From positions 2,598,977-2,662,976 of the forward strand of contig NC_135248.1 of assembly GCF_947623445.1 (NCBI RefSeq): a DNA stretch of 64,000 nucleotides, written 5' to 3'. This document shows, in pieces, positions 1 to 34,424 of this stretch (within the stretch, counting starts at the first letter, position 1; each line of letters begins with the position of its first letter). The DNA is from Clavelina lepadiformis. Lineage: Eukaryota. The notes beneath the pieces were generated by a model, which saw only the letters and a list, made by a program, of their open reading frames with translations, was not told the origin of the DNA and did not search any database. Position numbers and translations under genes: made by a program.

Positions 1-2461
1 TGCCCAACTCCGAATGAAGTATGGATTGTTGGGTACTCAATAGTACATCATGTGTATAGACAGCACGGATCAATATATTTTGTTCCTTTTTCTTCTGCTC
101 TCCCAAACCCACAGTAACCTCCCATCAGGAGAATCCAGAAGTCTAAACCATAGGTCGGCAACCAGCGGCTCTTTCATCTCTGTGCTCTGGTTCCCGCCAC
201 TCAGAGCCAATGAGCTGATTTAGGAAAACTTAATGTGATTAGCTAATGGTGGTTATTAGTGTCACGATGTAATAACTTAATGCGTTTGTCTGATTATTAT
301 TCAGATTGTTTTATGGTGATGTGGAAAATCTTATATAAACACTACCCAGTGGTTTTCGCGGGCATACAACGCATGACTGCTTGCCACTCACGTGATCCTA
401 AGTTTGTTTTTGTTCGAGGTCGCATGACTTGGATATTGGTCTTTGTTTGATGACTCTGCGGATGTTCATCGTTGTAGTGAGAATTTTGTGAGGTTAACTA
501 CTGAAGTTTTTACGTCTAACTGTAAAGCATTGGTTCGAATTATACATATAGCGTTAGGTTTTTTGTTTTAAGTATCCAATTAGGTGTTGTGGATCTGAGT
601 AGGCTTTAGTTTGGCGGAAACGAAACCAAATGGCTCTTTCAATGCTAAAGGTTGCCGACCCGTGACTAAACAATTCGCGTTTGACCACATTTTCTACTTT
701 GTTCTCCGGGATACCCAGATTACTCACCTAAAGTAATTCATGGTCGAACCGTTGATATTTTACCGCTTGGTATAGCAAGCATGACTTGTTTTGCAAGTTT
801 TTTTAGGCATTCTGGTGACTTCATCATACCATCCTAGTTAGTAATGTGACGGTTACGTCACGAGTCACGAGTTGTTTTCGAAATGCTGGAGTTTTATTTT
901 GGCATCTTGCAATTCAGTTGTTGATCGGACTTGAATTCTCTTCTAATGACGTTCAGATAAATTACCTCGCTTGATCTGGTGTGCCATATATATACTGTTG
1001 TCATGTTTGCAATTATTCCTTTACGTATCGATTTCACTGGTTACTACTGCGCAATGTAACATTCAGTCAGCTTTGCCCGAAGGTGAAAGCCTTTGTGTCT
1101 AATAATAAATAAAAATGGGAACTTTATCATTTAGTAATATGCATAGACAGAATTTAAGCAACTAACAGCATAGTCACGCCGTTTGAGAAATGAGAACTCA
1201 TATCGTTGAAGAAGAAGTAAAACAAGTTATTACCATCAACCGTCCTCGCTCATACTATAGTAATAGTCGTCAGTGTACGCGGTCTTTATGGCGAATATGT
1301 TTGTTGTGTAATACTTCACACAAGTAATACAGCAACGAAAATACTTATTTGTCATAGGAAATCGCAATTTGAAGAAGTAAGGGTAAGTTAAGGGCTTTAA
1401 TTTTTAGAGAATGGCGTATTGCAGTGTTGTTCTATTCATCTGGTATAAGTTATACCATGAACACTTTTTAGAAATTCTGATTCTGAAACATCCACTTTCA
1501 AGCGCAATTTATTGGTAAATGTCCAAGCTTCATGACCATAGATGGAAATTGGAAGAAAAACTGATTTAAAAAATGAGAGCTTAGCGGATATTAGAAAGGC
1601 CTCGCTTGTTGAAGTTCACGTATGACTGCACTTGCTTTTAAATTCAATCTTTGGTCGATCATGAGTTGCGTTACCAGGCGTTTGACTCCCACCTGCTTCG
1701 GTGTTTCTCCGCAGACTTGAAAAGAAAACCAATGAAAACCGAGTAAGGGTTTCAAGAGATTAAATTCCTCGGTTTTCTTTACGATTATTTTTATCTCGAA
1801 ATGAACAATCGCAAATAAACAAAGATCTCTGGCAACCACATTCACAGTGGACGGTGACTTGCAACTGTTTAATGTCTATTTTTCAAACAGAAACAACCTT
1901 TAGAACGTTTGTACCGCAGTTTAATGGCTATTATAATACTATTTAATGGTTGCTGTCAATATCATACTTGTGCAACGCTCTCCAAAGTTAAATTCGAAGC
2001 ACTCAATGTTACGTTTTTAGGGTCAGAAAAGCATACGTAGGTATTTTTGCGTATTCCTAAAAAGTTTGCAAATCTGGGAAAAAAATCGTTAAGAATAGAA
2101 CATGTTGTCCAAAAATAGAATAAAAAGCATTCGTTGTTAAATTTAGTAAACTTACCTACCCAAGCATAACTAGGCCAGCACAGAACACGAAAGCAAACAA
2201 TAATATATGTGAGTTTAAACAGTGCATTAAACCTTTAATTTTAAATCCATTTTTCTAATTTCAACTTAGAAAAACGTCTGTTGGTTAAAATGTGATTATC
2301 AGGATCAGCAAAGAAGAAAATAAAGCAAATAAATGACTCAAAATTTATACATATCGAATATTATTACGCAAATGAGTAACTTTTTGGTTACTAGTTACTG
2401 GAATTTTTCGAGTACTGTGTTATATTTTAATTTGGTAAATAAGTTAATTAACGCATGACAG

Positions 2462-2469
2462 TGACGTCA
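2462..2469. promoter_or_regulatory. Perfect CRE palindrome TGACGTCA upstream of the U1 collectin gene. Conserved in all five units (U2 ~10958, U3 ~19459, U4 ~26463, U5 ~32901).
   Basis: Motif reading only. It lies ~390 bp upstream of the ATG in U3-U5, and ~1.2 kb upstream in U1/U2 because of the MITE. A TATA-like ctatttataca sits ~115 bp upstream of the ATG. Confidence 0.3.
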
Positions 2470-2718
2470 GTACGACAAAGCAAATTCACAGTACACTGGT
2501 AGTAGCCGCATAAGATATACGTCACATTTATCTACCTGTCTCAGAGACATAATGTATTTGTTAAAGTCTTCGACCTTTTGAAATTGCTCCAGGGTAATAC
2601 TTTAAATTATTTTACTCGACACTATATCGCTTAACAAAGTGGTCAAGTCTATATGCAATATAGTACTTATATTTTTTAAATATTGCAATGCCTGTTTTTT
2701 AATGTTGCAGTTTAAATA

Positions 2719-3522
2719 AGGTACCTGTACCGAATAAGATCCAGTCCCTAATAAGGCCCATTGCTCATATTTCGCAAACCCGTGCAAATAAATGAAAGAT
2801 TTTGTCCCTACATAAAAACTAGTATAAATTCATGATGGTTTACCAGATTTCATCCTTGTCACGTGATCAACCGATTCGCTAGAGCACAACAAAAATTTGA
2901 TATTTGCAGTTAAGATGGTTTTGTTAATTTAGAAAAAAAAGTAAGTGAGAATTTGGCCGGTTAAATGAACTGTTGTCAGCCGGCTGAAGTTTTCATGTAA
3001 CAACCAACTTAGTATTGAAAAGGATAATGCACTTTTTTTTGCAAAAATTTTTCTGATGATAAAAATGTGACATTTTTTTGGTGGATGCCACATGCGCCTA
3101 ATAAGGCCCATACAAGATGCTTGGCTAATTGATGTCCAGACTTCAAGAGTGGTTCCAGTCATCAGTTGGCAAATTGTTGCAGTTACTTTGATGCGCCCAG
3201 TGGAATCTTTTTAAATGTTTGTACAACTTAAAATGTGAAATTTCTAATAATGTTATATGTTGTCTATTACTTTGTTTTGAATCAAAATACTCACAAAATT
3301 GGTGGGCCTTATTAGGAGCCTATGCTCCTAATAAGGCCCATTTTTTGGAATTTTTAATTTCTTTATAAGAATTTTTTGGAGGGTTGTCAGGTAATGTGGT
3401 TTTAATATGTTGTAGTCCTATACCCTCACTAATAGAATACGATTCTTCAGTCTATTCTCATTTATGGTTCTTGAGTTATTTTCAAAAAAGTGTTAGGTGG
3501 GCCTTATTCGGTACAGGTACCT
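2719..3522. mobile_element. 804-bp Tc1/mariner-type MITE (non-autonomous) with TA target-site duplication. Lies in the proximal promoter of the U1 collectin gene.
   Basis: Terminal inverted repeats AGGTACCTGTACCGAATAAG ... CTTATTCGGTACAGGTACCT. TA on both flanks. Internal palindromes cctaataaggccc/gggccttattagg, including a 42-bp perfect palindrome at ~3301-3342. The empty site gt(t/g)taaaTAataggac is preserved in U3, U4 and U5. No ORF. Confidence 0.8.
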
Positions 3523-3661
3523 TAATAGGACTATTTGTACCAAAAACCACGTCATAAGTGCCCGCAAAAATATCGTTTATGTTGTTTTTATTTTCAATGT
3601 TCAACCTTAAGTCTATTTTCTAATAGATTAAGTCATTGTTCTGAAAAGTAATCACTAAGAC

Positions 3662-3914
3662 ATGATGATGATGATGCTTGTATGCTTCTTATTTGTCACC
3701 GCATCACTTGTAAACGGACAAGATTACTTGACTTGCTTGAGAAACAGTGACGCATTTGCTGGTATCAACCCTCAAGACACAGTATCCAACATTCGGGGCC
3801 CGCCAGGTTACCCTGGTAAACGGGGAAGTCCAGGTGACAGGGGTCTACAAGGTGACAAAGGTTCCAAGGGTGAACCCGGATCATCCGACCGTGAAGAAAT
3901 TAGACGCTTAAGAG
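3662..3914 (+). CDS. collectin-like C-type lectin, exon 1 of 4 (U1): signal peptide plus collagen-like region
   Basis: ORF 3662-3925 encodes MMMMMLVCFLFVTASLVNG (signal peptide) then GPPGYPGKRGSPGDRGLQGDKGSKGEPGSS, which is 10 Gly-X-Y triplets. Donor is AG|GTGTGC at 3915, phase 1. Confidence 0.7.
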
Positions 3915-4073
3915 GTGTGCGTTAGATCATACACTGACGTAGTGAATTGAACTGTTTCAATTTTCTCCTGATTTTATTTGCAATACATTATGTGGTCATA
4001 CTTGTAAGCTTTCAAAAATCATGTGACAATTTTGTTAGTTATGAATGTTTTATGCAGCTGATTTGCTTTTCAG

Positions 4074-4139
4074 AAACCCAAGCTCTTATAAATATCGCCA
4101 TAAGACCACTTCAGGACAAAATATCACGCCTGTGTCAAG
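4074..4139 (+). CDS. collectin-like gene, exon 2 (U1): neck
   Basis: Acceptor ttttcag|, 66 nt, phase 1 to phase 1, encoding ETQALINIAIRPLQDKISRLCQ. Donor AAG|GTTTGG. The acceptor choice is supported because a 1-bp deletion in U3 just upstream of it keeps this frame but breaks the alternative (tatgcag|ctg). Confidence 0.55.
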
Positions 4140-4240
4140 GTTTGGTGCCGTTGTTAATAATAATGTTTTCTTTGATATGATCTTATCGAGTTTTTAGATT
4201 TGTTAAAAAATAACCTGACTTTTTTCATCCTATCAGAAGT
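4091..4240 (+). repeat. 150-bp direct duplication flanking the MULE-like insert, copy A. Contains the 3' 49 nt of exon 2 plus its donor. Copy B is at 5430-5578.
   Basis: Sequence aatatcgccataagaccacttcaggacaaaatatcacgcctgtg(t/c)caaggtttg...cctatcagaagt occurs once in U3, U4 and U5 but twice in U1/U2. The two copies are ~8% diverged. Confidence 0.8.
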
Positions 4241-5429
4241 GGTATACCGACACTTAATCACGCGACACTTAATCACTCGACACTTAATCACCGACACATA
4301 ATCACTAGAACATTTAATCACGCGACACATAATCACTTGGATGCGACAGCACTTGGACAGCGCCTTTGTCTATACTCTATAGCCTGTCTATACCGTCTTT
4401 GTTCTTTCAACTGTACACAGTACATTTTGAACTTGTTCCCGGTCTTATTTCTGCAGCAGTTTACTGCCTCGTTCAAAATAAAACGCGAGCAACCTACGAT
4501 CGCTTCCTTGATGCAATTAAAACAATGATCCCCACTGCTGCACCGGAATGCGTTTTGCTCGATTTTGAGACTGCCGCAGTAAGTGCTTTCCGCACAGCAT
4601 TTCCTACTGCAAATGTTAGGAGTTGTTATTTTCACCTTACACAAAGCGTCCTGCGCAAAGTTAATGAAATTGGCATGAAATGTGACTACGAGTCTGATGA
4701 GTGATGACGAATTAAGAACAGCTGATAGGTGTTTACCAGCCTTAGCCATGGTCCCTTCCTCTGACGTAGTCGAGTCATTTCTGATCTTAGCTGATAGCAT
4801 GCCCGATCACGAGAAGATGCCTGAGCTGCTTTCGTATTTCGAACACACATATATCAGAGGCAGACGACATCCGGGACGTGGTGAAAATTACGGCTCAGCC
4901 ATCTTTCCAATCGAAAGTTGGAATCATTACGAAGCCGGGGCAGGTTGCATTGCAAGAACCACAAATGCAGTCGAAGGTTGGCATTTTGGTCTCGAAGTGC
5001 TTTTTCAATGCCACCACCCGACATTGTGGACTTTCATACAGGGAATTGAAAAAGACATTCAAATGCAACGTGCAAAGTTTCTGCAAGGAATTGCTGGTAC
5101 TCAACCTTCTATTCCAATACGGTACAAGGCACTGAAACTGCGCGTGCAAAACACAGTTGACCGTTATCTGTCAAGAGATTTTAGTTTATCTTCGTGCAGT
5201 TGCTTACATTTCCCATGCATGACATTGTTACCGAGTGTGTACCGTAGCCTTATCTGCGCAAGCAATGTTTAATCATTTTAACAAGTTCTTTTCAGGTTTA
5301 TATTTGTTTTTTCGTGTGTAGACATGCAATTTTCGATACTGTAAATGTGTGATTAAATGTCCGAGTGATTAGGCCTATGTGTCGGTGATTAAGTGTCGCG
5401 TGATTAAGTGTCACCAAACCATCAGAAGT
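4241..5429 (+). mobile_element. MULE (Mutator-like) DNA transposon remnant in intron 2 of the U1 collectin gene
   Basis: Terminal inverted repeats of ~85-95 bp (4241-4336 and 5347-5429) built from tandem 14-bp subrepeats cgacacttaatcac (gtgattaagtgtcg at the other end). Internal ORFs 4366-4704 and 4682-5272 (frameshifted) carry the MULE core motif LLDFETAAVSAFRTAFPTANVRSCYFHLTQSV and the motif TTNAVEGWHFGL. The ~300 aa total is too short to be autonomous. Confidence 0.6.
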
Positions 5430-5578
5430 AATATCGCCATAAGACCACTTCAGGACAAAATATCACGCCTGTGCCAAGGTTTGATGCCGTTGTTAATAAT
5501 GATGTTTCTTTGATATGATCTTATCGAGTTATTAGATTTGTTAAAAAAGAACCCCACTTTTTTCATCCTATCAGAAGT
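5430..5578 (+). repeat. 150-bp flanking duplication, copy B. Carries a second potential donor (CCAAG|GTTTGA) 1.3 kb downstream of exon 2.
   Basis: See copy A. Confidence 0.8.
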
Positions 5579-6004
5579 AACGCCATGCGAGCAAAGTTGT
5601 TTTGTTTGACTGTGTTTTCGCTGTTTTCTGCGCACGTACGAAAATTCTCCTGCTGGTCGGCTACATTCTGCCCTTTCACGCTTTAGATTTAAATTCATTT
5701 AAAATAAATTCAACAGGATGTTATGAAAGCCATTATAACTGGCGTTGAAAAGTACGTAGTTCAGACCGAAAATGCTAGTTCTTGACTATCCCTTGGAAGC
5801 TTGTAGTATCAACCATGCTCAGAAATCAGGAACGTATCTGAAAGTCTTTAGTCGGCCTATACTAAGCTAATAAAAAATTGAAAATTTGTTATTTAACTCG
5901 TTTCTTCTTTGTACTTCTTCCTAAATGATATACTATGCTTATCAATGCTGACACTGGCAGTTTCTTATTGGATTAATTACTTTTTACAACTACTTCTTTC
6001 CAAG

Positions 6005-6152
6005 TTGCTGAAAGTGGTTGGTATACGCCGTTTAACGGATATCAATATCGCCTTACTGAAACTGAACAAAACTGGCAAGAAAGTCGACGTTTGTGCCAAG
6101 CAATGGGCGGTGATCTGGCCGCTGTTGGAATGAGGAACGTCGTCATTCGAAG
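6005..6152 (+). CDS. collectin-like gene, exon 3 (U1): N-terminal half of the C-type lectin domain
   Basis: Acceptor ccaag|, 148 nt, phase 1. Encodes (V)AESGWYTPFNGYQYRLTETEQNWQESRRLCQAMGGDLAAVGMRNVVIR, a typical CTLD start (GW..F.G..Y....T..W..A...C...GG.LA). Donor AG|GTTAGA. Confidence 0.7.
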
Positions 6153-6260
6153 GTTAGAAGTGGAATAAAACTGTCACATAAATGAAATATTACCACAACC
6201 ACGTCCAGAAATGTGCATCACTGTAATGGCAGAAGACAACGAAGTAACGTTTTTTTGCAG

Positions 6261-6525
6261 GAAACTTCTCACCGAAGTATTTAAATTTGTCCAAAATGTG
6301 TGGATAGGACTGAATGACATTTCCCGAGAAGGACAGTGGATGTGGATAGACGGTGTACAAGCGGCTGAAGGAAACGTCAACTGGTTAGCTGGTGAACCAA
6401 ACAATTCAGGAGATGAAGATTGTGCTGTGGTGAATGTGCCTGGCCACAACGGTGCAGTCGATTATCCATGTTCCTGGACCAAAATCGCTTTATGTGAAAA
6501 AATTGTCACAGACACTTGTCAGTAA
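6261..6525 (+). CDS. collectin-like gene, exon 4 (U1): C-terminal half of the CTLD with EPN motif, then stop
   Basis: Acceptor tttttttgcag|. Encodes KLLTEVFKFVQNVWIGLNDISREGQWMWIDG...AGEPNNSGDEDCAVVN...ALCEK. Stop TAA at 6523-6525. AATAAA at ~6654 and ~6666. Confidence 0.75.
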
Positions 6526-8116
6526 GAGTTTGTGCAAAACTTGTGTCGTCTGCTTTTGATTGCAAAATTCCGTTTGCTGTCATCCATCTGAGTATTACGT
6601 CATTACGTATAATCTTCCAGTGAACGCTTTAAAAACACGGATAAACTTGTAAAAATAAAACTATAAATAAACTACCTAACACGAAGCAGAGGTGATTAAT
6701 AGCAGAATGCACGTAAAACATTTTATTCGACTCTGTTTAACTTGCATGTATGTTTTCTACGACGTCCTGCATTCATCAGCAGCGTTAAAGTTGGAATGAT
6801 GTAAATAACGGAAATTAATCAATAAACAACAACAACAATGTTTTAACAAGATAAAGAATATCATTGCTTCTCAGCCGGTGAGTCGCAAAGCTTTTTCAGG
6901 TGGGCCACGTAGATTGCTGAAATGTTTCTTTGCAAAACTGCAATATCTGTACCGCAAATGGGCGCCACCCACCGGCGGACCCAGCAACAACTAATATTGC
7001 ACACAAAAAAAGACAATTGAAGTATGGACAAGTGTTCAGTCGAGTCGTTGCAGTGAACGATAGCGTAATACGCGGACTAATTTGAATGCTGCAGACCCAA
7101 CGGTTCATAAGATTTCACCTACGCATGAAATTGCAGAGATGATTGCAAAATTAACATGAGGTATCATATAAGTATATAATCGTTTTCCCTCAATGCCAAC
7201 ACAGTTACAACAAAAACAAAAAAAGAAAATAAGCATTAATGCTGGTTATGCAAAAGCACATGACGAAGGTGTTAAACTGCTTACTTATCAATAATGCAAT
7301 TCTTTGGGTTGATTTGAACGGTATGACTTCGCTTTACATGTATATTTACTACAGAAATGGCTGCAAGAACAAGAGTTATAATGATGCAACACTGCCCAAT
7401 AAATGCGATCGTAAACATACACCGCAAAGTTAAGATTATTATCATTCCCATAATTTTGTGTGTCATTGTAAACGCTGTACTATTATTTGGTTCAAAAGTA
7501 GTGGATGGTTGTTGTTTTGCACCGACTGGTAATAGGATCGCGGGTTGTTAATACGTCAACAGTAGCAATCGTACACAACAACGCAAGGCTTGAAAGGGAA
7601 CATTGTGAAAGCCGTTTAGAAAAAGGTACAATGTGCTTTGTCCTAAGGTGCAAATCGATTTTTTCCAGAAAACAAAGTAAGTCCTACAGGACAAAAAGCC
7701 AAACTTCGTTATTTCAGTTTGTTTCATTTCAAAGAACGCTATTGAGACTAAAAACTCTGATACTGACAGTGAACGGTTTATCAGCTTACAGAAACAGTGT
7801 AGTTTGAAAAGTTTTCATGCGTGAAATTTGAGAAAACATTTTGCAACATGTTAATTGATTGAAGATCCTGAAAAGTATAGAAAATTAATTAAGATTAAAG
7901 ATAACAAAAATGTAAAAGTAAAACAGCAAGAAAAATGATGACAAGTTGAGGGAAAATCATTTGTTTACTACGCGACTGGTTACAGTTTTCGTGAATCGGT
8001 CACCGACATTTTGCCGTCACACAACACACAAAATTTAAAACCAAAGCTCAGTTAGTGTTATCATAAATACATAAGTAGCCTTTACACAATACACATAAAA
8101 ACAAATATACACAGTA

Positions 8117-8150
8117 TATATATATATATATATATATATATACTGTGTAA
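8117..8150. repeat. (TA)n microsatellite embedded in a palindrome cacagta(ta)n tactgtg. Also at 16613-16646.
   Basis: Direct reading. U3 and U4 have only a few TA units at the orthologous site. Confidence 0.9.
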
Positions 8151-11100
8151 TGTGTATATAAACTACCCGCAATTTGTCTTAACATTTTGTGTGTTATGCA
8201 AAGTGTAGTCGGTTGTGAAATAAATGGTAAGAAAAAAACGAACCGTAGCAGATATGACAGATAAATAAGCGCGTTGGTAGATCTCGTTATTTTAGAATGA
8301 GAGGCAAGTGCCGTAATAAGTTAACTTGAAAGTAATAAAAGGCTTTGTGTAAGTTCACTTGAAAATTTATGTTCATGAGTATTTATAAGAACCAAGCATT
8401 TAGCTCCAAAAGTCTGCCGCAAAATGTCGCAAATTTACCACTCACTGTAAACTGGGTGTTGAGAATTTTGACGCTTCAATGTAAAATCGACTTGCATGCC
8501 CAACTCCGAATGAAGTATGGATTGTTGGGTACTCAATAGTACATCATGTGTATAGACAGCACGGATCAATATATTTTGTTCCTTTTTCTTCTGCTCTCCC
8601 AAACCCACAGTAACCTCCCATCAGGAGAATCCAGAAGTCTAAACCATAGGTCGGCAACCAGCGGCTCTTTCATCTCTGTGCTCTGGTTCCCGCCACTCAG
8701 AGCCAATGAGCTGATTTAGGAAAACTTAATGTGATTAGCTAATGGTGGTTATTAGTGTCACGATGTAATAACTTAATGCGTTTGTCTGATTATTATTCAG
8801 ATTGTTTTATGGTGATGTGGAAAATCTTATATAAACACTACCCAGTGGTTTTCGCGGGCATACAACGCATGACTGCTTGCCACTCACGTGATCCTAAGTT
8901 TGTTTTTGTTCGAGGTCGCATGACTTGGATATTGGTCTTTGTTTGATGACTCTGCGGATGTTCATCGTTGTAGTGAGAATTTTGTGAGGTTAACTACTGA
9001 AGTTTTTACGTCTAACTGTAAAGCATTGGTTCGAATTATACATATAGCGTTAGGTTTTTTGTTTTAAGTATCCAATTAGGTGTTGTGGATCTGAGTAGGC
9101 TTTAGTTTGGCGGAAACGAAACCAAATGGCTCTTTCAATGCTAAAGGTTGCCGACCCGTGACTAAACAATTCGCGTTTGACCACATTTTCTACTTTGTTC
9201 TCCGGGATACCCAGATTACTCACCTAAAGTAATTCATGGTCGAACCGTTGATATTTTACCGCTTGGTATAGCAAGCATGACTTGTTTTGCAAGTTTTTTT
9301 AGGCATTCTGGTGACTTCATCATACCATCCTAGTTAGTAATGTGACGGTTACGTCACGAGTCACGAGTTGTTTTCGAAATGCTGGAGTTTTATTTTGGCA
9401 TCTTGCAATTCAGTTGTTGATCGGACTTGAATTCTCTTCTAATGACGTTCAGATAAATTACCTCGCTTGATCTGGTGTGCCATATATATACTGTTGTCAT
9501 GTTTGCAATTATTCCTTTACGTATCGATTTCACTGGTTACTACTGCGCAATGTAACATTCAGTCAGCTTTGCCCGAAGGTGAAAGCCTTTGTGTCTAATA
9601 ATAAATAAAAATGGGAACTTTATCATTTAGTAATATGCATAGACAGAATTTAAGCAACTAACAGCATAGTCACGCCGTTTGAGAAATGAGAACTCATATC
9701 GTTGAAGAAGAAGTAAAACAAGTTATTACCATCAACCGTCCTCGCTCATACTATAGTAATAGTCGTCAGTGTACGCGGTCTTTATGGCGAATATGTTTGT
9801 TGTGTAATACTTCACACAAGTAATACAGCAACGAAAATACTTATTTGTCATAGGAAATCGCAATTTGAAGAAGTAAGGGTAAGTTAAGGGCTTTAATTTT
9901 TAGAGAATGGCGTATTGCAGTGTTGTTCTATTCATCTGGTATAAGTTATACCATGAACACTTTTTAGAAATTCTGATTCTGAAACATCCACTTTCAAGCG
10001 CAATTTATTGGTAAATGTCCAAGCTTCATGACCATAGATGGAAATTGGAAGAAAAACTGATTTAAAAAATGAGAGCTTAGCGGATATTAGAAAGGCCTCG
10101 CTTGTTGAAGTTCACGTATGACTGCACTTGCTTTTAAATTCAATCTTTGGTCGATCATGAGTTGCGTTACCAGGCGTTTGACTCCCACCTGCTTCGGTGT
10201 TTCTCCGCAGACTTGAAAAGAAAACCAATGAAAACCGAGTAAGGGTTTCAAGAGATTAAATTCCTCGGTTTTCTTTACGATTATTTTTATCTCGAAATGA
10301 ACAATCGCAAATAAACAAAGATCTCTGGCAACCACATTCACAGTGGACGGTGACTTGCAACTGTTTAATGTCTATTTTTCAAACAGAAACAACCTTTAGA
10401 ACGTTTGTACCGCAGTTTAATGGCTATTATAATACTATTTAATGGTTGCTGTCAATATCATACTTGTGCAACGCTCTCCAAAGTTAAATTCGAAGCACTC
10501 AATGTTACGTTTTTAGGGTCAGAAAAGCATACGTAGGTATTTTTGCGTATTCCTAAAAAGTTTGCAAATCTGGGAAAAAAATCGTTAAGAATAGAACATG
10601 TTGTCCAAAAATAGAATAAAAAGCATTCGTTGTTAAATTTAGTAAACTTACCTACCCAAGCATAACTAGGCCAGCACAGAACACGAAAGCAAACAATAAT
10701 ATATGTGAGTTTAAACAGTGCATTAAACCTTTAATTTTAAATCCATTTTTCTAATTTCAACTTAGAAAAACGTCTGTTGGTTAAAATGTGATTATCAGGA
10801 TCAGCAAAGAAGAAAATAAAGCAAATAAATGACTCAAAATTTATACATATCGAATATTATTACGCAAATGAGTAACTTTTTGGTTACTAGTTACTGGAAT
10901 TTTTCGAGTACTGTGTTATATTTTAATTTGGTAAATAAGTTAATTAACGCATGACAGTGACGTCAGTACGACAAAGCAAATTCACAGTACACTGGTAGTA
11001 GCCGCATAAGATATACGTCACATTTATCTACCTGTCTCAGAGACATAATGTATTTGTTAAAGTCTTCGACCTTTTGAAATTGCTCCAGGGTAATACTTTA

Positions 11101-11214
11101 AATTATTTTACTCGACACTATATCGCTTAACAAAGTGGTCAAGTCTATATGCAATATAGTACTTATATTTTTTAAATATTGCAATGCCTGTTTTTTAATG
11201 TTGCAGTTTAAATA

Positions 11215-12018
11215 AGGTACCTGTACCGAATAAGATCCAGTCCCTAATAAGGCCCATTGCTCATATTTCGCAAACCCGTGCAAATAAATGAAAGATTTTG
11301 TCCCTACATAAAAACTAGTATAAATTCATGATGGTTTACCAGATTTCATCCTTGTCACGTGATCAACCGATTCGCTAGAGCACAACAAAAATTTGATATT
11401 TGCAGTTAAGATGGTTTTGTTAATTTAGAAAAAAAAGTAAGTGAGAATTTGGCCGGTTAAATGAACTGTTGTCAGCCGGCTGAAGTTTTCATGTAACAAC
11501 CAACTTAGTATTGAAAAGGATAATGCACTTTTTTTTGCAAAAATTTTTCTGATGATAAAAATGTGACATTTTTTTGGTGGATGCCACATGCGCCTAATAA
11601 GGCCCATACAAGATGCTTGGCTAATTGATGTCCAGACTTCAAGAGTGGTTCCAGTCATCAGTTGGCAAATTGTTGCAGTTACTTTGATGCGCCCAGTGGA
11701 ATCTTTTTAAATGTTTGTACAACTTAAAATGTGAAATTTCTAATAATGTTATATGTTGTCTATTACTTTGTTTTGAATCAAAATACTCACAAAATTGGTG
11801 GGCCTTATTAGGAGCCTATGCTCCTAATAAGGCCCATTTTTTGGAATTTTTAATTTCTTTATAAGAATTTTTTGGAGGGTTGTCAGGTAATGTGGTTTTA
11901 ATATGTTGTAGTCCTATACCCTCACTAATAGAATACGATTCTTCAGTCTATTCTCATTTATGGTTCTTGAGTTATTTTCAAAAAAGTGTTAGGTGGGCCT
12001 TATTCGGTACAGGTACCT
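11215..12018. mobile_element. Same MITE, U2 copy
   Basis: U1 coordinates + 8496. Confidence 0.8.
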
Positions 12019-12157
12019 TAATAGGACTATTTGTACCAAAAACCACGTCATAAGTGCCCGCAAAAATATCGTTTATGTTGTTTTTATTTTCAATGTTCAA
12101 CCTTAAGTCTATTTTCTAATAGATTAAGTCATTGTTCTGAAAAGTAATCACTAAGAC

Positions 12158-12410
12158 ATGATGATGATGATGCTTGTATGCTTCTTATTTGTCACCGCAT
12201 CACTTGTAAACGGACAAGATTACTTGACTTGCTTGAGAAACAGTGACGCATTTGCTGGTATCAACCCTCAAGACACAGTATCCAACATTCGGGGCCCGCC
12301 AGGTTACCCTGGTAAACGGGGAAGTCCAGGTGACAGGGGTCTACAAGGTGACAAAGGTTCCAAGGGTGAACCCGGATCATCCGACCGTGAAGAAATTAGA
12401 CGCTTAAGAG
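12158..12410 (+). CDS. collectin-like gene, exon 1 (U2, identical to U1)
   Basis: ORF 12158-12421 is identical to 3662-3925. Confidence 0.7.
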
Positions 12411-12569
12411 GTGTGCGTTAGATCATACACTGACGTAGTGAATTGAACTGTTTCAATTTTCTCCTGATTTTATTTGCAATACATTATGTGGTCATACTTG
12501 TAAGCTTTCAAAAATCATGTGACAATTTTGTTAGTTATGAATGTTTTATGCAGCTGATTTGCTTTTCAG

Positions 12570-12635
12570 AAACCCAAGCTCTTATAAATATCGCCATAAG
12601 ACCACTTCAGGACAAAATATCACGCCTGTGTCAAG
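12570..12635 (+). CDS. collectin-like gene, exon 2 (U2)
   Basis: U1 coordinates + 8496; identical sequence. Confidence 0.55.
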
Positions 12636-12736
12636 GTTTGGTGCCGTTGTTAATAATAATGTTTTCTTTGATATGATCTTATCGAGTTTTTAGATTTGTT
12701 AAAAAATAACCTGACTTTTTTCATCCTATCAGAAGT

Positions 12737-13925
12737 GGTATACCGACACTTAATCACGCGACACTTAATCACTCGACACTTAATCACCGACACATAATCA
12801 CTAGAACATTTAATCACGCGACACATAATCACTTGGATGCGACAGCACTTGGACAGCGCCTTTGTCTATACTCTATAGCCTGTCTATACCGTCTTTGTTC
12901 TTTCAACTGTACACAGTACATTTTGAACTTGTTCCCGGTCTTATTTCTGCAGCAGTTTACTGCCTCGTTCAAAATAAAACGCGAGCAACCTACGATCGCT
13001 TCCTTGATGCAATTAAAACAATGATCCCCACTGCTGCACCGGAATGCGTTTTGCTCGATTTTGAGACTGCCGCAGTAAGTGCTTTCCGCACAGCATTTCC
13101 TACTGCAAATGTTAGGAGTTGTTATTTTCACCTTACACAAAGCGTCCTGCGCAAAGTTAATGAAATTGGCATGAAATGTGACTACGAGTCTGATGAGTGA
13201 TGACGAATTAAGAACAGCTGATAGGTGTTTACCAGCCTTAGCCATGGTCCCTTCCTCTGACGTAGTCGAGTCATTTCTGATCTTAGCTGATAGCATGCCC
13301 GATCACGAGAAGATGCCTGAGCTGCTTTCGTATTTCGAACACACATATATCAGAGGCAGACGACATCCGGGACGTGGTGAAAATTACGGCTCAGCCATCT
13401 TTCCAATCGAAAGTTGGAATCATTACGAAGCCGGGGCAGGTTGCATTGCAAGAACCACAAATGCAGTCGAAGGTTGGCATTTTGGTCTCGAAGTGCTTTT
13501 TCAATGCCACCACCCGACATTGTGGACTTTCATACAGGGAATTGAAAAAGACATTCAAATGCAACGTGCAAAGTTTCTGCAAGGAATTGCTGGTACTCAA
13601 CCTTCTATTCCAATACGGTACAAGGCACTGAAACTGCGCGTGCAAAACACAGTTGACCGTTATCTGTCAAGAGATTTTAGTTTATCTTCGTGCAGTTGCT
13701 TACATTTCCCATGCATGACATTGTTACCGAGTGTGTACCGTAGCCTTATCTGCGCAAGCAATGTTTAATCATTTTAACAAGTTCTTTTCAGGTTTATATT
13801 TGTTTTTTCGTGTGTAGACATGCAATTTTCGATACTGTAAATGTGTGATTAAATGTCCGAGTGATTAGGCCTATGTGTCGGTGATTAAGTGTCGCGTGAT
13901 TAAGTGTCACCAAACCATCAGAAGT
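12737..13925 (+). mobile_element. MULE-like element, U2 copy
   Basis: U1 coordinates + 8496; identical ORFs 12862-13200 and 13178-13768. Confidence 0.6.
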
Positions 13926-14500
13926 AATATCGCCATAAGACCACTTCAGGACAAAATATCACGCCTGTGCCAAGGTTTGATGCCGTTGTTAATAATGATG
14001 TTTCTTTGATATGATCTTATCGAGTTATTAGATTTGTTAAAAAAGAACCCCACTTTTTTCATCCTATCAGAAGTAACGCCATGCGAGCAAAGTTGTTTTG
14101 TTTGACTGTGTTTTCGCTGTTTTCTGCGCACGTACGAAAATTCTCCTGCTGGTCGGCTACATTCTGCCCTTTCACGCTTTAGATTTAAATTCATTTAAAA
14201 TAAATTCAACAGGATGTTATGAAAGCCATTATAACTGGCGTTGAAAAGTACGTAGTTCAGACCGAAAATGCTAGTTCTTGACTATCCCTTGGAAGCTTGT
14301 AGTATCAACCATGCTCAGAAATCAGGAACGTATCTGAAAGTCTTTAGTCGGCCTATACTAAGCTAATAAAAAATTGAAAATTTGTTATTTAACTCGTTTC
14401 TTCTTTGTACTTCTTCCTAAATGATATACTATGCTTATCAATGCTGACACTGGCAGTTTCTTATTGGATTAATTACTTTTTACAACTACTTCTTTCCAAG

Positions 14501-14648
14501 TTGCTGAAAGTGGTTGGTATACGCCGTTTAACGGATATCAATATCGCCTTACTGAAACTGAACAAAACTGGCAAGAAAGTCGACGTTTGTGCCAAGCAAT
14601 GGGCGGTGATCTGGCCGCTGTTGGAATGAGGAACGTCGTCATTCGAAG
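14501..14648 (+). CDS. collectin-like gene, exon 3 (U2)
   Basis: U1 coordinates + 8496; identical sequence. Confidence 0.7.
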
Positions 14649-14756
14649 GTTAGAAGTGGAATAAAACTGTCACATAAATGAAATATTACCACAACCACGT
14701 CCAGAAATGTGCATCACTGTAATGGCAGAAGACAACGAAGTAACGTTTTTTTGCAG

Positions 14757-15021
14757 GAAACTTCTCACCGAAGTATTTAAATTTGTCCAAAATGTGTGGA
14801 TAGGACTGAATGACATTTCCCGAGAAGGACAGTGGATGTGGATAGACGGTGTACAAGCGGCTGAAGGAAACGTCAACTGGTTAGCTGGTGAACCAAACAA
14901 TTCAGGAGATGAAGATTGTGCTGTGGTGAATGTGCCTGGCCACAACGGTGCAGTCGATTATCCATGTTCCTGGACCAAAATCGCTTTATGTGAAAAAATT
15001 GTCACAGACACTTGTCAGTAA
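14757..15021 (+). CDS. collectin-like gene, exon 4 (U2)
   Basis: ORF 14707-15021 is identical to 6211-6525. Confidence 0.75.
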
Positions 15022-18000
15022 GAGTTTGTGCAAAACTTGTGTCGTCTGCTTTTGATTGCAAAATTCCGTTTGCTGTCATCCATCTGAGTATTACGTCATT
15101 ACGTATAATCTTCCAGTGAACGCTTTAAAAACACGGATAAACTTGTAAAAATAAAACTATAAATAAACTACCTAACACGAAGCAGAGGTGATTAATAGCA
15201 GAATGCACGTAAAACATTTTATTCGACTCTGTTTAACTTGCATGTATGTTTTCTACGACGTCCTGCATTCATCAGCAGCGTTAAAGTTGGAATGATGTAA
15301 ATAACGGAAATTAATCAATAAACAACAACAACAATGTTTTAACAAGATAAAGAATATCATTGCTTCTCAGCCGGTGAGTCGCAAAGCTTTTTCAGGTGGG
15401 CCACGTAGATTGCTGAAATGTTTCTTTGCAAAACTGCAATATCTGTACCGCAAATGGGCGCCACCCACCGGCGGACCCAGCAACAACTAATATTGCACAC
15501 AAAAAAAGACAATTGAAGTATGGACAAGTGTTCAGTCGAGTCGTTGCAGTGAACGATAGCGTAATACGCGGACTAATTTGAATGCTGCAGACCCAACGGT
15601 TCATAAGATTTCACCTACGCATGAAATTGCAGAGATGATTGCAAAATTAACATGAGGTATCATATAAGTATATAATCGTTTTCCCTCAATGCCAACACAG
15701 TTACAACAAAAACAAAAAAAGAAAATAAGCATTAATGCTGGTTATGCAAAAGCACATGACGAAGGTGTTAAACTGCTTACTTATCAATAATGCAATTCTT
15801 TGGGTTGATTTGAACGGTATGACTTCGCTTTACATGTATATTTACTACAGAAATGGCTGCAAGAACAAGAGTTATAATGATGCAACACTGCCCAATAAAT
15901 GCGATCGTAAACATACACCGCAAAGTTAAGATTATTATCATTCCCATAATTTTGTGTGTCATTGTAAACGCTGTACTATTATTTGGTTCAAAAGTAGTGG
16001 ATGGTTGTTGTTTTGCACCGACTGGTAATAGGATCGCGGGTTGTTAATACGTCAACAGTAGCAATCGTACACAACAACGCAAGGCTTGAAAGGGAACATT
16101 GTGAAAGCCGTTTAGAAAAAGGTACAATGTGCTTTGTCCTAAGGTGCAAATCGATTTTTTCCAGAAAACAAAGTAAGTCCTACAGGACAAAAAGCCAAAC
16201 TTCGTTATTTCAGTTTGTTTCATTTCAAAGAACGCTATTGAGACTAAAAACTCTGATACTGACAGTGAACGGTTTATCAGCTTACAGAAACAGTGTAGTT
16301 TGAAAAGTTTTCATGCGTGAAATTTGAGAAAACATTTTGCAACATGTTAATTGATTGAAGATCCTGAAAAGTATAGAAAATTAATTAAGATTAAAGATAA
16401 CAAAAATGTAAAAGTAAAACAGCAAGAAAAATGATGACAAGTTGAGGGAAAATCATTTGTTTACTACGCGACTGGTTACAGTTTTCGTGAATCGGTCACC
16501 GACATTTTGCCGTCACACAACACACAAAATTTAAAACCAAAGCTCAGTTAGTGTTATCATAAATACATAAGTAGCCTTTACACAATACACATAAAAACAA
16601 ATATACACAGTATATATATATATATATATATATATATACTGTGTAATGTGTATATAAACTACCCGCAATTTGTCTTAACATTTTGTGTGTTATGCAAAGT
16701 GTAGTCGGTTGTGAAATAAATGGTAAGAAAAAAACGAACCGTAGCAGATATGACAGATAAATAAGCGCGTTGGTAGATCTCGTTATTTTAGAATGAGAGG
16801 CAAGTGCCGTAATAAGTTAACTTGAAAGTAATAAAAGGCTTTGTGTAAGTTCACTTGAAAATTTATGTTCATGAGTATTTATAAGAACCAAGCATTTAGC
16901 TCCAAAAGTCTGCCGCAAAATGTCGCAAATTTACCACTCACTGTAAACTGGGTGTTGAGAATTTTGACGCTTCAATGTAAAATCGACTTGCATGCCCAAC
17001 TCCGAATGAAGTATGGATTGTTGGGTACTCAATAGTACATCATGTGTATAGACAGCACGGATCAATATATTTTGTTCCTTTTTCTTCTGCTCTCCCAAAC
17101 CCACAGTAACCTCCCATCAGGAGAATCCAGAAGTCTAAACCATAGGTCGGCAACCAGCGGCTCTTTCATCTCTGTGCTCTGGTTCCCGCCACTCAGAGCC
17201 AATGAGCTGATTTAGGAAAACTTAATGTGATTAGCTAATGGTGGTTATTAGTGTCACGATGTAATAACTTAATGCGTTTGTCTGATTATTATTCAGATTG
17301 TTTTATGGTGATGTGGAAAATCTTATATAAACACTACCCAGTGGTTTTCGCGGGCATACAACGCATGACTGCTTGCCACTCACGTGATCCTAAGTTTGTT
17401 TTTGTTCGAGGTCGCATGACTTGGATATTGGTCTTTGTTTGATGACTCTGCGGATGTTCATCGTTGTAGTGAGAATTTTGTGAGGTTAACTACTGAAGTT
17501 TTTACGTCTAACTGTAAAGCATTGGTTCGAATTATACATATAGCGTTAGGTTTTTTGTTTTAAGTATCCAATTAGGTGTTGTGGATCTGAGTAGGCTTTA
17601 GTTTGGCGGAAACGAAACCAAATGGCTCTTTCAATGCTAAAGGTTGCCGACCCGTGACTAAACAATTCGCGTTTGACCACATTTTCTACTTTGTTCTCCG
17701 GGATACCCAGATTACTCACCTAAAGTAATTCATGGTCGAACCGTTGATATTTTACCGCTTGGTATAGCAAGCATGACTTGTTTTGCAAGTTTTTTTAGGC
17801 ATTCTGGTGACTTCATCATACCATCCTAGTTAGTAATGTGACGGTTACGTCACGAGTCACGAGTTGTTTTCGAAATGCTGGAGTTTTATTTTGGCATCTT
17901 GCAATTCAGTTGTTGATCGGACTTGAATTCTCTTCTAATGACGTTCAGATAAATTACCTCGCTTGATCTGGTGTGCCATATATATACTGTTGTCATGTTT

Positions 18001-19856
18001 GCAATTATTCCTTTACGTATCGATTTCACTGGTTACTACTGCGCAATGTAACATTCAGTCAGCTTTGCCCGAAGGTGAAAGCCTTTGTGTCTAATAATAA
18101 ATAAAAATGGGAACTTTATCATTTAGTAATATGCATAGACAGAATTTAAGCAACTAACAGCATAGTCACGCCGTTTGAGAAATGAGAACTCATATCGTTG
18201 AAGAAGAAGTAAAACAAGTTATTACCATCAACCGTCCTCGCTCATACTATAGTAATAGTCGTCAGTGTACGCGGTCTTTATGGCGAATATGTTTGTTGTG
18301 TAATACTTCACACAAGTAATACAGCAACGAAAATACTTATTTGTCATAGGAAATCGCAATTTGAAGAAGTAAGGGTAAGTTAAGGGCTTTAATTTTTAGA
18401 GAATGGCGTATTGCAGTGTTGTTCTATTCATCTGGTATAAGTTATACCATGAACACTTTTTAGAAATTCTGATTCTGAAACATCCACTTTCAAGCGCAAT
18501 TTATTGGTAAATGTCCAAGCTTCATGACCATAGATGGAAATTGGAAGAAAAACTGATTTAAAAAATGAGAGCTTAGCGGATATTAGAAAGGCCTCGCTTG
18601 TTGAAGTTCACGTATGACTGCACTTGCTTTTAAATTCAATCTTTGGTCGATCATGAGTTGCGTTACCAGGCGTTTGACTCCCACCTGCTTCGGTGTTTCT
18701 CCGCAGACTTGAAAAGAAAACCAATGAAAACCGAGTAAGGGTTTCAAGAGATTAAATTCCTCGGTTTTCTTTACGATTATTTTTATCTCGAAATGAACAA
18801 TCGCAAATAAACAAAGATCTCTGGCAACCACATTCACAGTGGACGGTGACTTACGACTGTTTAGTGTTTATTTTTCAAACGGAAACAACTCTTAGAACGT
18901 TTGTACCGCAGTTTAATGGCCACTATAATACTATTTAATGGCTGCTATCAATATCATACTTGTGCAACGCTCTCCAGAGTTAAATTCGAAGCACTCAATG
19001 CTACGTTTTTTTAGGATCAGAAAAGCATACGTAGCCATTTTTGCGTATTCCTAACAAGTTTGCAAATCTGGGAAAAAAATTCGTTAAGTGTAGAACATGT
19101 TGTCCAAAAATAGAATAAAAAGGCATTCGGTGTTAAAATTAGTAAACTTACCTACCCATGCATAACTAGGCCAGCACAGAACACGAAATCAAACAATAAT
19201 ATATGTAAGTTTAAACAGTGCATTAAACCTTTAATTTTAAATCCAATTTTCTAATTTCAACTTAGAAAAACGTCTGTTGGTTAAAATGTGATCATCAGGA
19301 TCAGCAAAAAAGAAAATAAAAGCAAATAAATGACTCAAAATTTATACATATCGAATATTATTACACAAATGAGTAACTTTTTGGTTACTAGTTACTGGAA
19401 TTTTTCGATTACTGTGTTATATATTAATTTGGTAAATAAGTTAATTAACTCATGACAGTGACGTCAGTACGTCTAAGCAAATTCACAGTACACTGGTAGT
19501 AGCCGCATAAGATATACGTCAGATTTATCTACCTGTCTCAGAGACATAATGTATTTGTTAAAGTCTTCGACCTTTTGAAATTGCTCCAGCGTAATACTTT
19601 AAATTATATTACTCGGCATTATATCGCTTGACAGAGTGGTCAAGTCTATATGCATTATAGTACTTATTTTTTAAATATTGCAATGCCTGTTTTTTAATGT
19701 TGCAGTTTAAACAATAGGACTATTTATACAAAAAACAACGTCATAAGTGCCCGTGAAAATATCGTTTATGTTGTTTTTATTTTCAATGTTCAACCTTACG
19801 CCTATTTTCTTATAGATTAAGTCTTTGTTCTGAAAAGTAAACACTAAGACAAAATA

Positions 19857-20327: not shown

Positions 20328-20953
20328 GTTTGGTGACGTTGTTAATAATAAAGTTTTTTTGATATGATCTTATCGAGTTATTAGATTTGTTAAAAAAGAA
20401 CCCCACTTTTTTCATCCTATCAGAAGTAACGCCATGCCGGCAAAGTTGTTTTGTTTGACTGTGTTTTCGCTGTTTTCTGCGCACGTACTAAAATTCTCCA
20501 GCTGGTCGGCTACATTCTGCCCTTTCACGCTTTAGATTACAACCTGTCATGGGCATTCAGTTTATTTTTGTTTTACGTAAAATGATAAAATGCATTGAAC
20601 AAAGATGTCGTTCTATCAAAGAATTGGTAATATTAATTAGGCCGAAATAACCAAGAAAGTTCAACAGGATGTTATGAAAGCTATTATAACTGGCGTTGAA
20701 ACGTACGTAGTTCAGACCGAAAATGCTAGTTCTTGACTATATATCCCTTGGAAGCTTGTAGTATCAACTATGCTCAGAAATCAGGAAAGTTTCTGAAAGC
20801 CTTTAGTCGCCCTATACTAAGCTAATAAAACATTGAAAATTTGTAATTTAATTTATTTTTTACTTCTTCCTAAATTATAAACTACGCTTATCAATGTTGA
20901 CATTGGTAGTTTCTTATTGGACTAATTACTTTTTAAAGCTGCTTCTTCCCAAG

Positions 20954-27335: not shown

Positions 27336-27958
27336 GTTTGATGCCGTTGTTAATAATAAAGTTTTTTTGATATGATTAAGTTACTAGGTTTGTCAAAAAA
27401 TAACACGACCTTTTTCATCCTATCAGAATTAATAGCATGCGAGCAAAGTTGTTTTGTTTGACTGTGTTTTCGCTGTTTTCTGCGCACGTACTAAAATTCT
27501 CCAGCTGGTCGGCCATATTCTGCCCTTTTACGCTTTAGATTACAACCTGTTATGCGCATTCAGTTTATTTTTGCTTTACGCAAAATGATAAAATGCATTG
27601 AACAAAGATGTCGTTCTGCCAAAGAATTGGTAATATTAGTTAAGCCAAAATAACCAAGAAAATTCAACAGAATGTTATGAAAGCTATTATAACTGGCGTT
27701 GAAACGTACGTAGTTCAGACCGAAAATGCTAGTTATTGACTATCCCTTGGAAGCTTGGAGTATCAACTATGCTCAGAAATCAGGAAAGTTTCTGAAAGCC
27801 TTTAGTCGGCCTATACTAAGCTAATAAAACATTGAAAATTTGTTATTTAATTCGTTTTTTCTATGTATTTCTTCCTAAATTATATACTACGCTTATCAAT
27901 GTTGACATTGGCATTTTTTTATTTGACTAATTACTTTTTAAAGCTGCTTCTTCCCAAG

Positions 27959-33809: not shown

Positions 33810-34424
33810 GTTTGGTGCCGTTGTTAATAATAATGTTTTCTTTCATATGATATTATCGAGTTATTAGATTTATTAAAAAGTAACCCGACTTTTTTCATCC
33901 TATCAGAAGTAACGCCGTGCGAGCAAATAGGTTTTGTTTGACTGTGTTTTCACTTTTTTCTGCGCACGTACAAAAATTCTCCTGTTGGTCGGCTACATTC
34001 TGCCCTTTCACGCTTTAGATTTAAACCTGTCATGGGCATTCAGTTTATTTTTGCTTCACGTAAAATGATAAAATGCATTGAACAAAGATGTCGTTCTATC
34101 AAAGAATTGGTAATATTAATTAGGCCGAAATAACCAAGAAAGTTCAACAGGATGTTATGAAAGCCATTATAACTGGCGTTGAAACGTACGTAGTTCAGAC
34201 CGAAAATGCTAGTTCTTGACTATCCCTTGGAAGCTTGTAGTATCAACTATGCTCAGGTATCAGGAAAGTTTCTGAAAGCCTTTAGTCGGCCTATACTAAG
34301 CTAATAAAACATTGAAAATTTGTTATTTAATTTACTTTTTTCTATGTACTTCTTCCTAAATTATATACTATGCTTATCAATGTTGATATTGGCAGTTTCT
34401 TATTTGACTAATTACTTTTTAAAG

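Follow-up and report, generated by a model that had tools for sequence, protein, structure and literature searches.

Evidence for a dead, internally deleted FLYWCH-type Mutator-like element with Foldback-like ends in a collectin-like gene

We analyzed a 64-kb stretch of DNA (referred to here as the window) and, with high confidence, identify positions 4241-5420 as a dead, internally deleted, nonautonomous Mutator-like element (MULE) of the FLYWCH type. The element is Phantom/Muta-like, carries Foldback-like ends, and lies in sense orientation in a collectin-like gene. A MULE had already been proposed in a preliminary description of this DNA, and that interpretation was borne out by a match to the Pfam MULE profile (PF10551), by homologues that combine FLYWCH and MULE domains, and by the presence of the same ends elsewhere. 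The element is an ordinary FLYWCH-type MULE relic of an already known architecture.

The element proper measures 1180 bp (4241-5420), as determined by a reading of positions 3900-5800 together with alignment to empty paralogous units of the same gene array. These limits, and the perfect 9-bp target-site duplication that accompanies them, follow from the fact that ATCAGAAGT abuts both ends and that the empty units run straight through the site. The features concerned are as follows.

4232-4240, unstranded: target-site duplication, left copy, 9 bp, ATCAGAAGT; the same 9-mer recurs at 5421-5429 and is single-copy in the empty units.
5421-5429, unstranded: target-site duplication, right copy, 9 bp, ATCAGAAGT; perfect 9/9 match to the left copy.
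20419-20427, unstranded: empty target site in unit 3, ATCAGAAGT.
27422-27430, unstranded: empty target site in unit 4, ATCAGAATT.
33902-33910, unstranded: equivalent empty site in unit 5.

Both copies of ATCAGAAGT directly adjoin the two terminal motifs of the element. When units 3, 4, and 5 were aligned to the flanks of unit 1, their host DNA was found to be uninterrupted through ...CATCCTATCAGAAGT|AACGCCATGCGAG..., and none of these three paralogous units contains an insertion at the precise position that the element occupies in unit 1. The insertion made a 9-bp target-site duplication and was of the cut-and-paste type with a 9-bp stagger; a duplication matching at 9 of 9 positions falls within the range of the MULE superfamily (8 to 11 bp, typically 9). 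The element had earlier been taken to span 4241-5429. Its start stands, but its end moves inward, since 5421-5429 is the right-hand target-site duplication.

The two ends are inverted with respect to each other and are built largely of short tandem subrepeats.

4241-4337, plus strand: left terminal inverted repeat, consisting of the terminal motif GGTATACC followed by six tandem subrepeats of 14 to 16 bp with the core GACAYWTAATCAC.
5349-5420, minus strand: right terminal inverted repeat, consisting of four subrepeats and the terminal motif GGTTTGGT (read on the minus strand).

Overall, the terminal inverted repeats amount to about 97 bp on the left and about 72 bp on the right, and in this respect the element conforms to the MULE superfamily. 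An inverted-repeat search returned arms of at most 37 nt at 97% complementarity. Parsing by hand revealed that one of the right-hand subrepeats is broken by a 6-bp insertion, and the right end of the window copy is already eroded. The nonrandom character of the arrays is evident from a search for CGACACTTAATCAC (allowing up to 2 mismatches), which has 16 matches in the 64 kb compared with 0.42 expected, a count reached in none of 100 shuffles. All of these matches fall into two inverted clusters per element copy, namely 4248-4336(+) and 5349-5413(-) in the first copy and 12744-12832(+) and 13845-13909(-) in the second. Tandem Repeats Finder described the left array as 5.9 copies with a period of 15 (4248-4336) and recovered 2.3 clean copies in the right array (5379-5412). 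The preliminary description had given the ends as four to six tandem copies of a 14-bp unit. Arrays are indeed present at both ends, with six and four units, but the spacing varies from 14 to 16 bp (most commonly 15) rather than being a strict 14. Across 38 units from the window element and its Clavelina relative (see below), the subrepeat consensus is (C/G)GACA(C/T)(T/A)TAATCAC, with 9 invariant positions. The 8-bp terminal motifs lie outside the arrays and differ from one another (GGTATACC on the left and GGTTTGGT on the right, read inward). A terminal motif followed by a variable number of tandem subrepeats is the arrangement of Foldback-like (type 2) ends, and the element displays it.

Between these ends lies the remnant of a transposase gene. 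The two open reading frames originally listed (4366-4704 and 4682-5272) both exist as stated. A search for the MULE domain had been set beforehand as a possible refutation of the MULE assignment; the frame at 4366-4701 matched PF10551 above the Pfam curated threshold (E=2.8e-11, 44.1 bits against a cutoff of 27.6 bits). This match covers only positions 27-98 of the 99 in the profile, because the N-terminal part of the protein has been deleted. Upon repair of the reading frame, the conceptual translation matched 160 database proteins at E values down to 2.9e-123. Full-length homologues are 455 to 468 amino acids long and contain FLYWCH (PF04500) and MULE (PF10551) domains, and the remnant shares about 70% identity with their residues 181-454. 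The best full-length relative (P0002, 455 amino acids) was used as the tblastn reference against the element, yielding the following map.

4390-4713, plus strand: homology to P0002 residues 181-288 (tblastn, 70% identity).
4700-5167, plus strand: homology to P0002 residues 282-437 (tblastn, 71% identity).
5175-5216, plus strand: homology to P0002 residues 441-454 (tblastn, 71% identity).
4338-4389, plus strand: noncoding stretch after an internal deletion of the 5' 40% of the transposase gene; no P0002 homology upstream of residue 181.
4390-4695, plus strand: remnant piece 1, frame 1 (P0002 residues 181 to about 282), with the MULE core, the second catalytic Asp (LLDFE), and CYFH.
4696-4702, plus strand: 7-bp insertion gatgagt, a near-duplicate of the gatgacg that follows it, causing frameshift 1 (by comparison with the Clavelina copy and P0002).
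4703-5175, plus strand: remnant piece 2, frame 2 (P0002 residues about 282-437), with the catalytic-Glu motif TTNAVEGWH.
5175-5222, plus strand: remnant piece 3, frame 3 (P0002 residues 441-454), with the C-terminal EILVYLRAVAYISHA and the original stop codon tga.

The remnant reads in three frames because it has suffered two frameshifts, not the one claimed previously. At the first (the insertion at 4696-4702), the Clavelina copy reads gagtct-aatgacgaa and P0002 reads YESDDNLR; the second, at 5175/5176, is a deletion of 2 bp that the Clavelina copy retains. The original stop codon is found at 5220-5222. When the remnant was aligned with nine full-length relatives, the DFE, CYFH, and TTNxxEGWH blocks proved to be kept, and the invariant columns in piece 2 are N198, E201, G202, W203, and H204. 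What has been lost is residues 1-180, including the FLYWCH finger and the ADGTFKV block that holds the first catalytic Asp. All nine full-length relatives possess the DDE triad and the C-x2-H motif, and the window copy is without the first Asp. No uninterrupted full-length transposase ORF is present in the window copy. The suspicion that it is nonautonomous was thus well founded, and its condition is worse than had been supposed, with 180 N-terminal residues lost in addition to the two frameshifts. We infer that the window copy cannot make transposase and is at best a passive substrate. As an aside, bacterial insertion sequence relatives (or contamination) were considered and rejected; the DDE_Tnp_ISL3 and Transposase_mut matches are below threshold and reflect a shared superfamily fold.

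An independent copy of the element is present in Clavelina lepadiformis (GCA_961645235.1, CAUIVY010000066.1; positions 5758-6844 of locus L002, 1,087 bp), where it is situated between genes for a connexin and a PLAT-domain protein. Over 526 internal bp the two elements share 97.1% identity, which suggests that the window derives from this species or one closely related to it; an exact-match search with the second frame, translated from its first ATG (4697-5269), returned no protein record. The Clavelina copy differs in its internal deletion and bears its own perfect 9-bp target-site duplication (AATGGACGC). Its terminal motifs (GGTGTACC and GGTTTGGT) are shared with the window element, and its arrays comprise 15 and 14 subrepeats, versus 6 and 4 in the window element. 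The preliminary description had made recurrence of the inverted ends in other genomic copies a check on its reading; they were found in this copy and also in the full-length loci L001, L014, and L006. In Clavelina lepadiformis, a fragment of the family bears the annotation “unnamed protein product.”

The full-length relatives are single-ORF elements of about 2.0 kb with ends of about 100 bp constructed in the same way. One of them (L001 5588-7589) is 2,002 bp long and encodes a 455-amino-acid protein in an intronless ORF; its ends are inverted over 103 nt with 94% complementarity, are made of ATCAC-core units (about 10 subrepeats), and are bounded by a target-site duplication that matches at 8 of 9 positions. 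P0002 itself matches the FLYWCH profile at E=3.8e-09 (37 bits versus a 23.6-bit cutoff) and positions 2-98 of the MULE profile, and full-length relatives at 52 to 71% identity carry PF04500 together with PF10551, so that a FLYWCH finger is present in the family. We found no autonomous copy with more than 90% identity to the window remnant; the best full-length match reached 71%. A metagenome scan yielded 38 contigs with the subrepeat dimer, one of which (L014) contains a full-length ORF, 60% identical to the window remnant. The same core and termini occur in metagenome-derived elements whose transposases are only 60 to 79% identical. Other metagenome copies are MITE-like (372 to 709 bp, with 4 to 6 subrepeats and the same termini), and one of these, L025, has a clean 8/8-bp duplication (AGTTCAGA). 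Both termini were recovered in only three metagenome loci, where the duplications comprise one clean 8-bp example and two that are decayed or rearranged (6/9 and 4/9), giving slight further support. More distant elements (L003, L004, and L005, at about 54% amino acid identity) have arrays with the same period and cores of their own (GTTCACCGC, CAAYTGAACGC, and GGTTCATATC). Across the family, then, the array layout is conserved, the core varies by lineage, and the repeat number varies among copies. Lineage-specific cores are the pattern expected if transposase and binding site coevolve.

Five collectin-like gene units, arranged in tandem and each with a collagen exon and a C-type-lectin exon, make up the window. 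The collagen exon (3662-3925) precedes the element and the lectin exon (6211-6525) follows it, all three on one strand, and the element presumably occupies an intron of the collectin-like lectin gene. A second copy is also present.

12737-13916, plus strand: second copy of the element, base-for-base identical to the first, inside unit 2 of a segmental duplicate.

Bases 1-8496 equal bases 8497-16992 at every position (8,496 bp, 100% identical), and the first 1,860 bases of unit 3 match those of unit 1 exactly. The second copy is carried by a very recent segmental duplication or by an assembly artifact. The insertion is older than the 8.5-kb duplication that yielded this second copy. Apart from the two identical copies, a search of the 64-kb window with three full-length transposases revealed no further remnants of the family.

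Several other readings of this locus deserve consideration. Two copies with intact-looking ends, 8.5 kb apart, might be taken as separate transposition events and hence as a sign of recent activity, yet the identity of the two 8,496-bp segments extends throughout, including the flanks, the target-site duplication, and the 149-bp repeats described below. The sequence at 12737-13916 is for that reason not a separate insertion, and the probability that we are wrong on this point is, in our judgment, negligible. Foldback-like ends have arisen in several superfamilies (PMC3169594), and it could be argued that the element belongs to one of those others (P/Galileo-like or hAT, for instance) and that its similarity to MULEs is incidental. 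We give this argument next to no weight, however, as MULE was the only Pfam family above threshold, the homologues down to E=2.9e-123 all contain PF10551 (with or without PF04500), and a target-site duplication of 9 bp is what MULEs typically produce. It is also very improbable, if marginally less so, that the remnant is a domesticated, MULE-derived host gene (of the FLYWCH, ZSWIM, or FHY3 kind) or an exon of the lectin gene. MULE transposases have been domesticated repeatedly, and we did observe a weak, subthreshold match to ZSWIM1-3_RNaseH-like (E=0.0023, 18.3 bits versus a cutoff of 27.2). Difficult to reconcile with a host function, however, are the two frameshifts and the loss of 180 N-terminal residues, a catalytic Asp among them. 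Moreover, inverted ends and a 9-bp target-site duplication enclose the remnant, three paralogous units that can otherwise be aligned across the site lack it, and it has a counterpart at an unrelated locus, between the connexin and PLAT-domain genes. We therefore favor a dead FLYWCH-type MULE.

One aspect of the insertion falls outside ordinary MULE integration, namely, a duplication of 149 bp of host flank.

4091-4240, unstranded: host flank of 150 bp that recurs beyond the element; 142 of 150 columns match 5430-5578, and the sequence is single in the empty units.
5430-5578, unstranded: second copy of the host flank, 149 bp, starting directly after the right target-site duplication.

The resulting layout is A-T9-[element]-T9-A-T9, where T9 is the ATCAGAAGT that ends the flank and A is the remaining 141 bp. 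The sole novel junction, 5429|5430, coincides with the outer edge of the right target-site duplication, subject to a 2-bp ambiguity due to a shared AA. Both 150-bp flank copies are 95 to 96% identical to unit 3, and comparison of 300-bp segments with units 3 to 5, aimed at unequal exchange between units at the transposon, disclosed no switch of the closest paralogue across the element, a result that is uninformative as to the origin of the flank. The Clavelina copy lacks a flank repeat of this kind.

How this duplication arose is a matter on which we can be only tentative. One possibility, which we regard as a minority prospect, is that it was produced by the insertion itself or by its immediate repair. 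The junction at 5429|5430 would be where the free 3' end of the target strand lies while the gap left by MULE strand transfer is being filled, and the duplication might then have been generated if this end switched template to an intact copy or was joined at that nick. Alternatively, the element could have inserted by chance into a preexisting tandem duplication of 2 × 150 bp, although by our rough estimate the junction would be struck so precisely only about 1 to 2% of the time. The repeats might also be regarded as LTR-like parts of a larger mobile unit, with the “empty” units being solo repeats left by recombination; formally, repeat-element-repeat at one locus and a single repeat at another is the outcome expected of solo-LTR formation. 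We nevertheless consider this most improbable. The 150-bp sequence is found within the 64 kb only at the orthologous position of each gene unit, the Clavelina and metagenome copies of the family have unrelated flanks without any such repeat, and the inverted ends and the 9-bp duplication are located inside the repeats. Furthermore, the three empty units have AATGACGCC at a position that reads AATATCGCC in both repeats of the filled unit, which fits duplication within the filled lineage.

The preliminary description called the subrepeat-built ends unusual. We cannot agree, as the same layout is common among animal FLYWCH-MULEs (PMC5225508, PMC3169594). In Aedes aegypti, 12 of 14 MULE families have terminal inverted repeats longer than 100 bp, 10 of those 12 have subterminal tandem repeats of 9 to 15 bp, FLYWCH transposases occur in 13 of the 14 families, and the repeat number varies among derivatives (PMC5225508). 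Two members of this group lend themselves to direct comparison. Muta1 has a 10-bp terminal motif and nine 12-bp repeats with 3- to 4-bp spacers, encodes a FLYWCH transposase, generates 8- to 9-bp duplications, and transposes in yeast (PMC5225508); in Muta5, the terminal motif is 8 bp long and is accompanied by nine 15-bp repeats (PMC5225508). Like them, the present family encodes one transposase, in which an N-terminal FLYWCH finger is combined with a DDE/MULE core (416 to 554 amino acids there, 455 to 468 in the relatives studied here). Also shared are inverted ends of about 100 to 150 bp made of a terminal motif and some nine subrepeats of 12 to 15 bp (with spacers, the period in Muta1 is 15 to 16 bp), target-site duplications of 8 to 9 bp, and many nonautonomous derivatives with variable subrepeat number. 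However, neither the subrepeats nor the terminal motifs are related in sequence; the relatives described here are about 2.0 kb long with an intronless ORF, compared with 3.2 to 3.5 kb and two to three exons; the terminal motifs here are unlike at the two ends; and the host is tunicate-like rather than an insect. Muta1 is the only one of the compared elements with demonstrated activity.

A further comparison is with Tm1, a Mutator/Foldback family of root-knot nematodes (Meloidogyne), whose terminal inverted repeats contain variable numbers of tandem repeats of about 14 bp (PMC3169594). Tm1 has asymmetric 7-bp terminal motifs, 9-bp duplications, and a 496-amino-acid FLYWCH+MULE transposase, and it is assigned to the Phantom subclass (PMC3169594). 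Common to both are composite ends made mostly of 13- to 15-bp tandem repeats in variable number, terminal motifs of about 7 bp that lie beyond the inverted repeat and differ between the ends, target-site duplications of 9 bp, a transposase of about 500 amino acids with FLYWCH and MULE domains, MITE-like and other noncoding derivatives, and a family that is largely decayed. The Tm1 motifs A1 (CGGTTAA), A2 (CCTACCC), B (GGA), C (CGATTCAGTATCCGC), and the purine-rich D are absent from the parsed ends of the window element, and the histone-hairpin cargo of Tm1 is likewise absent here. The window element is thus an analogue and a probable clade-mate of Tm1 and not a member of Tm1 itself. According to PMC3169594 and PMC6446971, the Phantom subclass of Marquez and Pritham (2010) is characterized by FLYWCH and MULE domains, target-site duplications of 8 to 10 bp, and terminal inverted repeats of 18 to 613 bp. 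Its recorded hosts already include Tunicata (PMC6446971), and in one survey chordate examples were scarce, being represented by a single Ciona savignyi sequence (PMC6446971). The family shares the FLYWCH+MULE architecture of Phantom, and its placement in this clade is suggested by that domain architecture.

Foldback (FB) and Galileo of Drosophila have long inverted ends composed of short tandem repeats whose number varies among copies and between ends. A study of THAP binding in Galileo reportedly showed that its repeat-built ends carry multiple sites for the transposase. Multiple transposase-binding repeats are the functional model that we would apply to the window family, although the FB and Galileo ends are much longer (hundreds of base pairs to kilobases) and the Galileo transposase belongs to the P superfamily.

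With these parallels in mind, we suggest that the 13-bp core GACAYWTAATCAC, which recurs about every 15 bp, is a candidate binding site of the family transposase. This proposal rests on architecture, conservation, and analogy, that is, on the pattern of conservation across the family, on the same design in Muta1 together with its transposition in yeast, and on the multiple binding sites of Galileo. The core would probably be read by the N-terminal FLYWCH zinc finger of the transposase. A full-length member of the family, acting in trans, may bind the arrays and pair the two ends; cleavage would then fall at the two unlike terminal motifs, GGTRTAC and GGTTTGG, and integration would proceed across a 9-bp stagger, a series of steps reportedly demonstrated by experiment for Muta1, a relative from mosquitoes.

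For annotation, the frames at 4366-4704 and 4682-5272 should be masked as a transposon relic and not be counted as genes. The flank duplication is a small footnote on insertion repair; if it was indeed made by the insertion, it would represent a natural case in which a DNA transposon duplicated its flank over a length more than 10 times that of the canonical target-site duplication. With this element, the FLYWCH/Phantom MULEs gain a well-delimited family from a tunicate, with empty sites, exact termini, a target-site duplication, and a 13-bp core. Together with its lineage variants, the core GACAYWTAATCAC provides a concrete candidate binding site for a FLYWCH-type DNA-binding domain.

The transposon lies within positions 1-37500 of the window, where five collectin-like gene units are arrayed in tandem. 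Each of the units carries a collagen-repeat exon and a C-type-lectin exon, the units range from 6.3 to 8.5 kb in size, and identity among the paralogues is 90-96%. The unit starts, with one example of each exon type, are as follows.

Position 1: start of unit 1
3662-3925: collagen-repeat exon, example (Pfam Collagen)
6211-6525: C-type-lectin exon, example (Pfam Lectin_C)
Position 8497: start of unit 2
Position 16993: start of unit 3
Position 23341: start of unit 4
Position 30411: start of unit 5

For the segment of unit 1 at 2900-3499, a counterpart exists in unit 4 alone, and its relative position there is different.

When positions 1-8496 were compared with 8497-16992, no base was found to differ between these two whole 8,496-bp gene units. 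Unit 3 is identical to unit 1 over its first 1,860 bases (16993-18852) and is divergent thereafter. This identity either arose by a very recent tandem duplication accompanied by conversion or results from misassembly of a repeat array.

Host sequence of about 150 bp was observed on both sides of the transposon (4091-4240 and 5430-5578), the two copies being identical at 142 of 150 columns. This flank is single-copy in all three of the paralogous units that are empty at the insertion site (3/3), and the novel junction of its duplication falls on the outer edge of the right 9-bp target-site duplication.

The subrepeat dimer and termini of the window element were found in 38 metagenome contigs from a few samples (L010-L047, comprising JGI contigs Ga0081606, Ga0056123, Ga0056124 and others); the metagenome set also includes L006-L009. 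The proteins of these elements share 60-79% identity with the transposase remnant in the window, and MITE-like copies are present among the contigs. Presumably, the elements derive from the DNA of a eukaryotic host within those samples. In Clavelina lepadiformis itself, a 164-aa “unnamed protein product” (P0101) in the public annotation of CAUIVY010000066.1 (L002, 6001-6495) proved to be a frameshifted transposase fragment of the same family, located within a 1,087-bp nonautonomous element, and is likely a false positive of gene annotation.

Elements from different hosts retain the asymmetric terminal motifs (GGTTTGG and GGTRTAC), but the reading direction of the ORF between these motifs is reversed in some copies relative to others. 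In the two Clavelina-type copies (window 4241-5420 and L002 5758-6844), the order is GGTRTAC, ORF, GGTTTGG; in the full-length relative L001 (5588-7589) and in the metagenome-derived L006, L025, and L028, the ORF reads from GGTTTGG toward GGTRTAC. Opposite orientation of the ORF between the same terminal motifs suggests that the internal segment was inverted via recombination between the inverted subrepeat arrays.
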